The notes under the pieces were generated by a model. It worked only from the letters and a program-made list of their open reading frames with translations, was not told the origin of the DNA and ran no database searches. From NCBI RefSeq assembly GCF_054482595.1, contig NZ_CM137008.1: a stretch of 64,000 nucleotides of DNA; one strand, given 5' to 3'. Made by a program: the position numbers and the translations under genes. Each line of letters starts with the position of its first letter. The stretch's first letter is position 1. Shown here piece after piece: positions 6,531 to 7,499 of the stretch.

Positions 6531-7499
6531 CTGCTCTCCAATGACTAGTCTAAAAACTAGTATTAAGACTATCACTTAAATAAGTGATATTGGTTGTCTG
6601 GAGATTCAGGGGGCCAGTCTACTCAGAGGTAATCATACCGTGAATAGTGCTGTTTTTGATTGTCAGACTATTGGCGTTGGTATTGGTAGAAATACCGTCG
6701 TCCAGATAGTAGGTAGAAATCACCCCGTTAACAGTAGCGTTATTAATGACCGGGTAGATATCGCCGTTGTAATAGCTATCAGCGGCATAGTTGTTCCAGC
6801 CTACATAACCATCATAGTAAACATCATCAGCATAGGTGGCGTCGTTGTAGTGATGAAAAGTATTGTAAGTTTGACCAGAAATATCGTTGGTCGCTGCATT
6901 AGCCTGAGAGGTGATAGCCAGAGTGCAAGCCAATGCTAATTGTGATACTACAAGTTTCTTTTTCCAGGAGTGCATTTGTCATCCCTCCTCAGGGACGTAA
7001 TAAGTTGATCCATCAATTATCAATGCATAGAAAACATCTTATGTTTCGCGTTTACGATTATGCGGCGTTATAGAGGAATGGTTCAATTATTCTTTCCCCT
7101 AAGTCCGATTGCGGACATATATAAAAATATCTATACGCACAAAGAATAAGTTGACAAAAACACTGCATTTCAACACGTTAATGAAATCATTAATTTTGAA
7201 TTATAGATCCTGAAAATACCAAAACAACAAATCAGACAAATAATTTATCAATAAACAATGAACTTTAAGTAATTCAATTTTTGACAGTTCAACCAAATTA
7301 GCAAAAATAATAACCAGCACCTATAAATAAAAATTAAAAATATTTTCAGTGAATATGAAATTATTGCTATTTCTATTACAAAGATGTCCTGGCCTCTCTT
7401 CCATTCTCTTCTTGTCAACATCGCGACAACTTTCGTAAAACATCCCCACCCTGCTTCAGGTATACTATGCCCCTCGATTCCACAAACATCAGGCAGACC

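Follow-up and report, generated by a model that had tools for sequence, protein, structure and literature searches.

The ehaB–hemB intergenic region is AT-rich and built of three modules

We analysed the intergenic region between ehaB (yaiT), which encodes an autotransporter adhesin, and hemB, which encodes porphobilinogen synthase, in a 64,000-nucleotide stretch of DNA (the window; RefSeq assembly GCF_054482595.1, contig NZ_CM137008.1). The window comes from a non-K-12 E. coli; over 6900-7560 it shares 100% of its bases with strain XH990 and 88.3% with MG1655. In RefSeq and in the curated K-12 annotation the two flanking genes diverge, with the ehaB start codon at 6975-6973 on the minus strand and that of hemB at 7500 on the plus strand. 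Reading hemB from an ATG further upstream, at 7467, gives a 335-aa open reading frame (ORF); since this codon is AGG in the other common haplotype, the hemB start is really 7500. The gap and its central part are as follows.

6976-7499, unstranded: whole ehaB(yaiT)–hemB intergenic region, 524 bp, GC 33%
7125-7325, unstranded: hypervariable AT-rich core, 199-202 bp, GC 25-32%, A exceeding T in every allele

The original prediction, made from the letters of the window, had described this interval as a strongly AT-rich leader with A/T tracts and no ORF of 60 aa or more. The composition bears this out: GC content is 0.332 in the interval and 0.242 in 7100-7380, far from the 0.527 of the whole window, and ten A/T runs of at least 4 bases lie between 7100 and 7400. 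Just 0.3% of 524-bp windows are equally or more AT-rich, and the GC minimum (6853-7376) overlaps the interval. The next AT-richest 524-bp stretches of the window are 57761-58284 (GC 0.338) and 2115-2638 (GC 0.382). The longest ORF inside the interval has 57 aa (7248-7421, minus strand), so that none reaches 60 aa, as had been stated; by itself, this absence is uninformative because stop codons are common at 24-33% GC.

Eleven E. coli strains, five other Escherichia lineages and eight Citrobacter species were aligned, and on this basis the gap was divided into three modules: an ehaB side (6976-7124), a core (7125-7325) and a hemB side (7326-7499). Sliding nucleotide diversity (pi) among five strains was 0.004-0.04 at 6885-7084, rose to 0.22-0.31 at 7085-7332 and returned to 0.04-0.085 at 7333-7500; in hemB and the tau genes it was 0.00-0.05. 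Divergence from the eight Citrobacter sequences was 0.03 in the ehaB leader, 0.28 in the ehaB promoter block, 0.56 in the core and 0.18 in the hemB promoter and 5' untranslated region (UTR), with 0.45-0.50 (about 47%) at the neutral 4-fold degenerate sites of hemB as the yardstick. Conservation reaches well past the hemB promoter. Neither outcome named in advance as refuting the original prediction, a GC content close to that of the window or a lack of conservation past this promoter, was observed. What the original prediction missed is the hypervariable central 200 bp with its deep allele classes, the ultra-conserved ehaB leader and the splitting of ehaB by the insertion sequence (IS) IS2.

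At least four deeply diverged core classes are present in E. coli

Within the 45 kb of the window that can be aligned to K-12, no other 200-bp stretch diverges as much as the core (32.5%; the median is 1.5% and the 95th percentile 6%). All 13 Escherichia core alleles nevertheless share the length and GC content listed above, as well as a strand skew in which A makes up 0.41-0.50 and T 0.23-0.30 of the plus strand, and they differ by indels of 1-2 bp. Length, AT content and strand skew are therefore kept, and the base sequence is nearly free to vary, which is expected if the physical properties of the DNA alone are selected. Transitions are about as frequent as transversions, which fits old, saturated divergence.

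E. coli carries at least four core classes: A (the window, XH990 and O157:H7), B (K-12 and relatives), C (TUM14759) and D (FDAARGOS_1291). Pairwise core divergence is 0.25-0.36 between classes and 0.02-0.10 within them, and the classes are as far apart as sequences of separate Escherichia species. Among 5,426 complete E. coli genomes, searched with at least 80% coverage of the core, class A was found in 406, class B in 1,882, class C in 1,562 and class D in 304. A sample of 73 metagenome contigs comprised 40 of class B, 22 of class C, seven of class D and one of class A, plus three non-coli alleles. For comparison, hemB sequences within E. coli differ at 4-fold sites by 0.04-0.13. Their distance is 0.17-0.24 to a divergent genome labelled E. 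coli and to three further Escherichia species, and 0.30-0.34 to E. albertii. Dividing core divergence by that of the hemB 4-fold sites yields 0.4-1.3 for pairs of one class and 3.1-4.5 for pairs of different classes, which argues that there is no ongoing hypermutation and that the classes are old or imported.

Class A behaves like a native lineage. The core of the window lies 0.34 from that of K-12, and the class A core is 0.07 from Escherichia sp. E1V33, 0.15 from E. whittamii and 0.18 from Escherichia sp. MOD1-EC7003, in line with the distances between the species. Class B, in turn, is at least 0.32 from everything sampled. Divergence of hemB is 0.072-0.081 between genomes of different core classes and 0.047-0.066 between genomes of the same class, and all four combinations of core class and hemB-side haplotype are present. 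The core classes have recombined against both flanks, and their distribution is incongruent with the flanking genes. Simple hitch-hiking with the class of the EhaB passenger domain was also considered and rejected, because SCU-106 pairs a type-1 passenger with a class B core.

One metagenome contig (OJKP01002936.1, L054) has a K-12-identical core beside a hemB that is 0.19 (4-fold) from every reference. This is probably a chimeric assembly and possibly a recombinant hemB.

These distances also bear on another conceivable origin of the core, divergence in place. A locally elevated mutation rate, or a relaxation of constraint on DNA coated by H-NS, would then account for its variation, with no ancient or imported alleles. 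Such an origin would be in keeping with the apparent lack of sequence constraint in the core, and with the published finding that E. coli intergenic regions upstream of genes are more diverse when bound by H-NS (median 0.016, versus 0.0067 when unbound; PMC4720273). We nevertheless regard it as unlikely. Diversity within core classes does not exceed that of neutral hemB sites (0.02 between the window and O157, against 0.06 at hemB 4-fold sites), so that ongoing hypermutation is not indicated, and the divergence between classes is 3-4.5 times neutral, a level that relaxed constraint alone cannot reach, since it cannot pass the neutral rate. The agreement of class A with species distances, the isolation of class B and the saturated pattern of transitions and transversions likewise speak against divergence in place.

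The ehaB side carries a highly conserved leader and a predicted sigma-70 promoter

Four features were delineated on the ehaB side.

6976-7050, minus strand: predicted ehaB 5' leader, 75 nt, 3% divergent from Citrobacter
6980-6997, minus strand: leader hairpin CGUCCCU-GAGG-AGGGAUG, covering the Shine-Dalgarno sequence GAGGAGGG
7057-7086, minus strand: predicted sigma-70 ehaB promoter, TTGAAC (7086-7081), 18-bp spacer, CATAAT (7062-7057), from hexamer conservation
7103-7116, unstranded: palindrome GTCCG-N4-CGGAC, a candidate operator

The leader is the most conserved stretch of the neighbourhood; its 3% divergence from Citrobacter compares with 13% in the signal-peptide codons and about 47% at hemB 4-fold sites. 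Its hairpin (-10.9 kcal/mol, z -3.5) encloses GAGGAGGG and has GGA motifs inside; it may have a CsrA-type or other role. Upstream of it, TTGAAC and CATAAT are invariant across Escherichia and Citrobacter and the spacer between them varies, a pattern that is classical for sigma-70 promoters; the ehaB transcription start is predicted at about 7050.

The palindrome is centred ~60 bp upstream of the predicted start, and in Citrobacter its arms are conserved and its spacer is variable. As to what might bind it, the product of the adjacent iprA gene and SoxS can be named as speculative candidates. IprA has a weak cyclic nucleotide monophosphate (cNMP)-like domain and a winged helix, and its gene is always beside ehaB; for SoxS, a peak in chromatin immunoprecipitation (ChIP) sequencing has been reported in the hemB<>yaiU gap of Salmonella SL1344, without an identified binding motif. 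The ehaB side also contains a single conserved GATC (7008-7011).

The hemB side carries a promoter with an invariant -10 hexamer

On the opposite side of the core, the following features lead into hemB.

7326-7427, unstranded: AT-rich block, conserved within Escherichia (0-9% divergence) and not alignable with Citrobacter (alignment)
7430-7441, plus strand: cross-genus conserved block CTTTCGTAAAAC over the hemB -35 region (alignment)
7461-7466, plus strand: hemB -10 hexamer TATACT, the same in every Escherichia and Citrobacter sequence (alignment)
7467-7499, plus strand: hemB -10 to start codon, with predicted transcription start at about 7472-7474 and conserved 5' UTR (alignment)
7500-8474, plus strand: hemB, porphobilinogen synthase, 324 aa (RefSeq and K-12 annotation)

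The -35 element of hemB is weak and lies within the conserved block 7430-7441. In the clinical strain 4848 (L012, 3950-4030), ehaB has been lost through an IS1-mediated deletion that leaves just ~50 bp of the gap in front of hemB, and the IS1 end provides TTGGCA 18 bp upstream of the retained TATACT. The arrangement is an apparent natural hybrid promoter that would drive hemB. Because hemB is a core haem-synthesis gene and TATACT is retained in this strain, the deletion indirectly supports TATACT as the hemB -10 hexamer; it further shows that hemB can do without the remainder of the gap once a -35 element is supplied. The original prediction had placed promoters for both genes in the interval, and the hexamers on both sides are indeed kept as far as Citrobacter.

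The region probably acts as an H-NS-silenced divergent control region

We consider it likely that the interval is a shared divergent control region of ehaB and hemB without a gene of its own, in which the core would form an H-NS platform that silences ehaB and the deep core alleles have been shuffled by recombination. It would then probably be an ordinary H-NS-silenced divergent regulatory region and, at the same time, an extreme and undescribed instance of what has been called a switched intergenic region. The original prediction had noted that regions of this kind are typical H-NS targets, and the GC content of 33% (24% in the core), against 52.7% for the window, agrees with such a target. 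The composition thus points to H-NS silencing of ehaB, as does, by analogy, the Salmonella ortholog of ehaB, yaiU (seaB), whose promoter H-NS binds in electrophoretic mobility shift assays, isothermal titration calorimetry (ITC) and ChIP with quantitative PCR (PMC10657408). The dissociation constants from ITC were 0.29-0.46 µM over the four promoters tested, yaiU among them, and Salmonella yaiU is termed H-NS-repressed, with cyclic di-GMP blocking H-NS binding (PMC10657408). In K-12, Cappable-seq lists no start in the yaiT direction anywhere in the gap (PMC4782308 supplement), which is consistent with a silent ehaB, and the ortholog lies next to hemB throughout the Enterobacteriaceae examined. 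Outside the interval, the stretch 2115-2638 holds the ehaB-iprA spacer, whose K-12 counterpart (yaiU-yaiV) was found to be H-NS-associated by genomic SELEX (systematic evolution of ligands by exponential enrichment; PMC3946193).

The core also contains a candidate site for H-NS.

7242-7251, minus strand: TTGATAAATT, agreeing at 9/10 positions with the H-NS high-affinity motif TCGATAAATT and lying where the core varies least

The consensus TCGATAAATT reportedly goes back to Lang et al. in 2007. The match is the single one at 9/10, and it is altered in the K-12-type allele.

In the mechanism that we propose, the core most likely serves as a loading and spreading platform for H-NS that would hold ehaB silent in ordinary growth, and it would also set ehaB apart from the constitutively needed hemB promoter. 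The ehaB side would be a strongly constrained unit of the 75-nt leader with its hairpin-held Shine-Dalgarno sequence, the sigma-70 promoter and the short palindrome, and the hemB side would hold the hemB promoter (the TATACT -10 hexamer and the weak -35 element in its conserved block) and a short leader. The core sequence, being nearly free to vary, would record a deep history, and its alleles would have been moved by recombination relative to both flanks. The data show the composition, the module boundaries, the figures for conservation and divergence, the allele classes with their frequencies and the lack of an sRNA, small ORF, repeat or inversion; we infer the exact transcription starts, the H-NS occupancy in E. 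coli and any roles of the hairpin, the palindrome and the allele differences. If the proposal holds, the region offers a natural dissection of an H-NS-silenced adhesin promoter, in which the leader, the hexamers and one palindrome are constrained between Escherichia and Citrobacter, and the core is constrained just in length and base composition.

Several observations weigh against this interpretation. No non-coli donor lineage for classes B, C and D was found in 18 species genomes and 85 metagenome loci. The leader hairpin is invariant and so lacks covariation support, and the palindrome is imperfect in the commonest allele class, the right arm being TGGAC in K-12-type alleles. Promoter-like sites in the gap number 2, versus 2.5 expected from shuffled sequence. 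The predicted ehaB start is unconfirmed by the K-12 Cappable-seq data, as would be expected if the gene is silent, yet silence is not thereby proven. Finally, the periodicity of AA/TT at 9.5-11.5 bp does not rise above that of shuffled sequences in any allele; intrinsic curvature, which the original prediction had proposed to compute, is therefore unsupported, the AA/TT dinucleotides showing no helical phasing.

This missing phasing of A-tracts, together with the near freedom of the core to vary, could also be taken to mean that the core is a passive spacer without a silencing role, that ehaB is quiet for want of an activator and that the AT-richness is left over from a horizontal origin. We think this improbable. 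Core length (199-202 bp), GC content (25-32%) and skew have stayed constant at a level of divergence where a larger number of indels and a shift in composition would normally be expected. The whole gap is similarly stable in length: every Escherichia sequence has 522-527 bp, and the Citrobacter sequences have 487-510 bp apart from one of the eight, which has 626 bp. The published H-NS binding at the promoter of the Salmonella ortholog (PMC10657408) is a further point against a passive spacer.

A bolder view goes beyond shuffled silencer alleles. The ~300-bp block 7038-7335 would be a trans-specific regulatory polymorphism, in which at least four ancient ehaB silencer alleles are kept at intermediate frequency by selection on the manner or occurrence of the adhesin's escape from silencing. 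It would lie between the hemB promoter and the invariant ehaB leader, which would itself be an undescribed post-transcriptional control element whose hairpin masks the ribosome-binding site and bears CsrA-like GGA motifs. We hold this view to be doubtful.

No gene and no invertible switch were detected in the gap

AT-rich gaps sometimes hold genes for small RNAs (sRNAs) or small proteins, and the original prediction had mentioned both as occasional occupants while recognising nothing specific. The variable core might then be such an unannotated gene evolving fast; several ORFs of 20-57 aa are present, and at 7281-7308 (plus strand) a perfect TTGACA is paired with the -10 hexamer AAAAAT in the window allele. 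The TTGACA is, however, missing from the other core classes. In a permissive E-value mode, the best Rfam matches had E-values of 4.3 and 4.7 (IS128 at E=4.7) and scored 14-16 bits, against gathering scores of 42-80. The consensus folding energy of ten diverged alleles was ~0 kcal/mol at 7140-7340 on both strands, the DNA palindrome and the ehaB leader being the only elements of the gap that stood out in consensus folding, and there were no terminator-like sites in 6976-7499.

A search for conserved short ORFs, which the original prediction had recommended, found none in the core: across 14 sequences and both strands, no core ORF of at least 10 aa keeps its frame across alleles, and ORFs in the flanks change frame between Escherichia and Citrobacter. 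The core indels of 1-2 bp also weigh against a gene for an sRNA or a small protein. In the curated annotation of K-12 the gap is empty, even though small proteins found by ribosome profiling, such as ytiB and ykiC, are listed nearby. With Rfam, ORF conservation, consensus folding and K-12 annotation in agreement, a hidden sRNA or small-protein gene is largely refuted and, in our judgement, very improbable. For annotation, the AT-richest 524 bp of the window are a control region with no missed gene, and the finding is ordinary in that respect.

A phase-variable ehaB switch in the core, whether an invertible element of the fimS/ipuS kind or a slipping homopolymer tract, is scarcely credible. In its favour, inversion of a promoter element controls the E. 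coli autotransporter UpaE (PMC6083910), the core is bordered by imperfect inverted repeats (7124-7135 with 7335-7346; 7190-7212 with 7315-7337) and an A-run at ~7303 differs by 1-3 bases between strains. Against it, an inverted core occurred in none of 87 sequences (at most three shared 10-mers with any reverse complement, against a forward median of 225), and no allele departs from the common direction of the A>T skew. The inverted repeats fall within variable sequence, lack conservation and have the quality expected in 75% AT DNA; RefSeq and the K-12 annotation have no recombinase gene beside the gap, and no tandem repeats were found in it. The inversion form is largely refuted.

Comparison with related regulatory regions

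The closest counterpart is the H-NS-silenced promoter of Salmonella yaiU/seaB, which lies between the same pair of genes (hemB<>autotransporter, followed by iprA); every one of the Enterobacteriaceae examined has seaB/ehaB in this arrangement. The gap in E. coli has the corresponding position and a strongly AT-rich sequence. H-NS binding has been demonstrated for the Salmonella promoter and would extend to E. coli by analogy. The two differ in that ehaB is a pseudogene in the window strain and in many others, where the silencer would control nothing useful.

Switched intergenic regions and horizontal regulatory transfer were described by Oren et al. 2014, as cited in Thorpe et al. 2018 (PMC5890482). 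Like these, the gap has the same flanking genes, divergent alleles (64-75% identity in the core, 86-88% over the whole gap) and an uncoupling from the flanks by recombination. Unlike them, the alleles are homologous, colinear and of equal length, and the central 200-300 bp are replaced between promoter-proximal flanks that are near-identical. The core classes are ~3-4.5 times deeper than the adjoining housekeeping gene and provide a compact, easily typed case for asking whether an exchange of regulatory DNA alters adhesin expression between E. coli lineages. Since insertion sequences inactivate ehaB so often, an effect of this kind may be relevant just to the minority of strains that keep the gene intact.

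The gap also resembles the H-NS-bound regions of Higashi et al. 2016 (PMC4720273) in being AT-rich, upstream of a surface-protein gene and more diverse than its neighbours. That study covered gaps of 10-300 bp, leaving out this one of 524 bp (PMC4720273), and the core, with a pi of 0.22-0.31, is more than 10 times as diverse as the bound-region median of 0.016 and falls into discrete classes. With the ipuS/UpaE inversion and the Dam/OxyR switch of Ag43, it shares the upstream control of an E. coli autotransporter adhesin and the differences from strain to strain; unlike in those systems, there is no inversion and no adjoining recombinase, and one conserved GATC takes the place of a cluster.

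ehaB is disrupted in the window and in most sampled genomes

In the window, ehaB itself is interrupted within its 5' part.

6619-6975, minus strand: 5' ehaB fragment, signal peptide and first 118 codons, cut off by IS2
5291-6621, minus strand: IS2 in ehaB, with 5-bp target duplication CTCAG (5286-5290 and 6622-6626)

The IS2 copy is complete, lies 357 bp past the ehaB start codon and has the gene's own orientation; in K-12, ehaB is split by IS3 instead. The IS2::ehaB junction of the window was absent, as a single piece, from the 5,426 complete E. coli genomes. Across the 11 sampled E. coli genomes, ehaB is intact in four and has been inactivated independently in most (L002, L004, L005, L009-L012). 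The inactivating events comprise IS3 (in K-12), IS911, IS2 at another site, IS1203 with a frameshift, ISApl1, the IS1-mediated deletion and a frameshift in one O157:H7 genome.

The N-terminus of the EhaB passenger (6619-6894; L013-L030) occurs in two unrelated types, ATNDISGQTY... and TTYDTWTYYD..., both of which are present in Escherichia and Citrobacter. The first 118 residues of the window EhaB are 83-88% identical to several Citrobacter proteins and ~50% identical to that of E. whittamii. Taken with the presence of both types in the two genera, these identities indicate that the passenger allele classes span genera.

Elsewhere in the window, 47050-47850 and 22610-22903 show staggered, overlapping matches of 71-78% identity to one ~375-bp segment lying between prpB and prpC in K-12. 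These matches point to a repeat of ~95 bp that has been amplified into an array, and a further copy lies at another place in the window. Three segments (12034-20157, 32642-34475 and 59410-64000) are without a counterpart in the colinear K-12 segment, and the first of them stands in place of ~5 kb of K-12 DNA that includes IS2A and yaiX-yaiP-yaiS.

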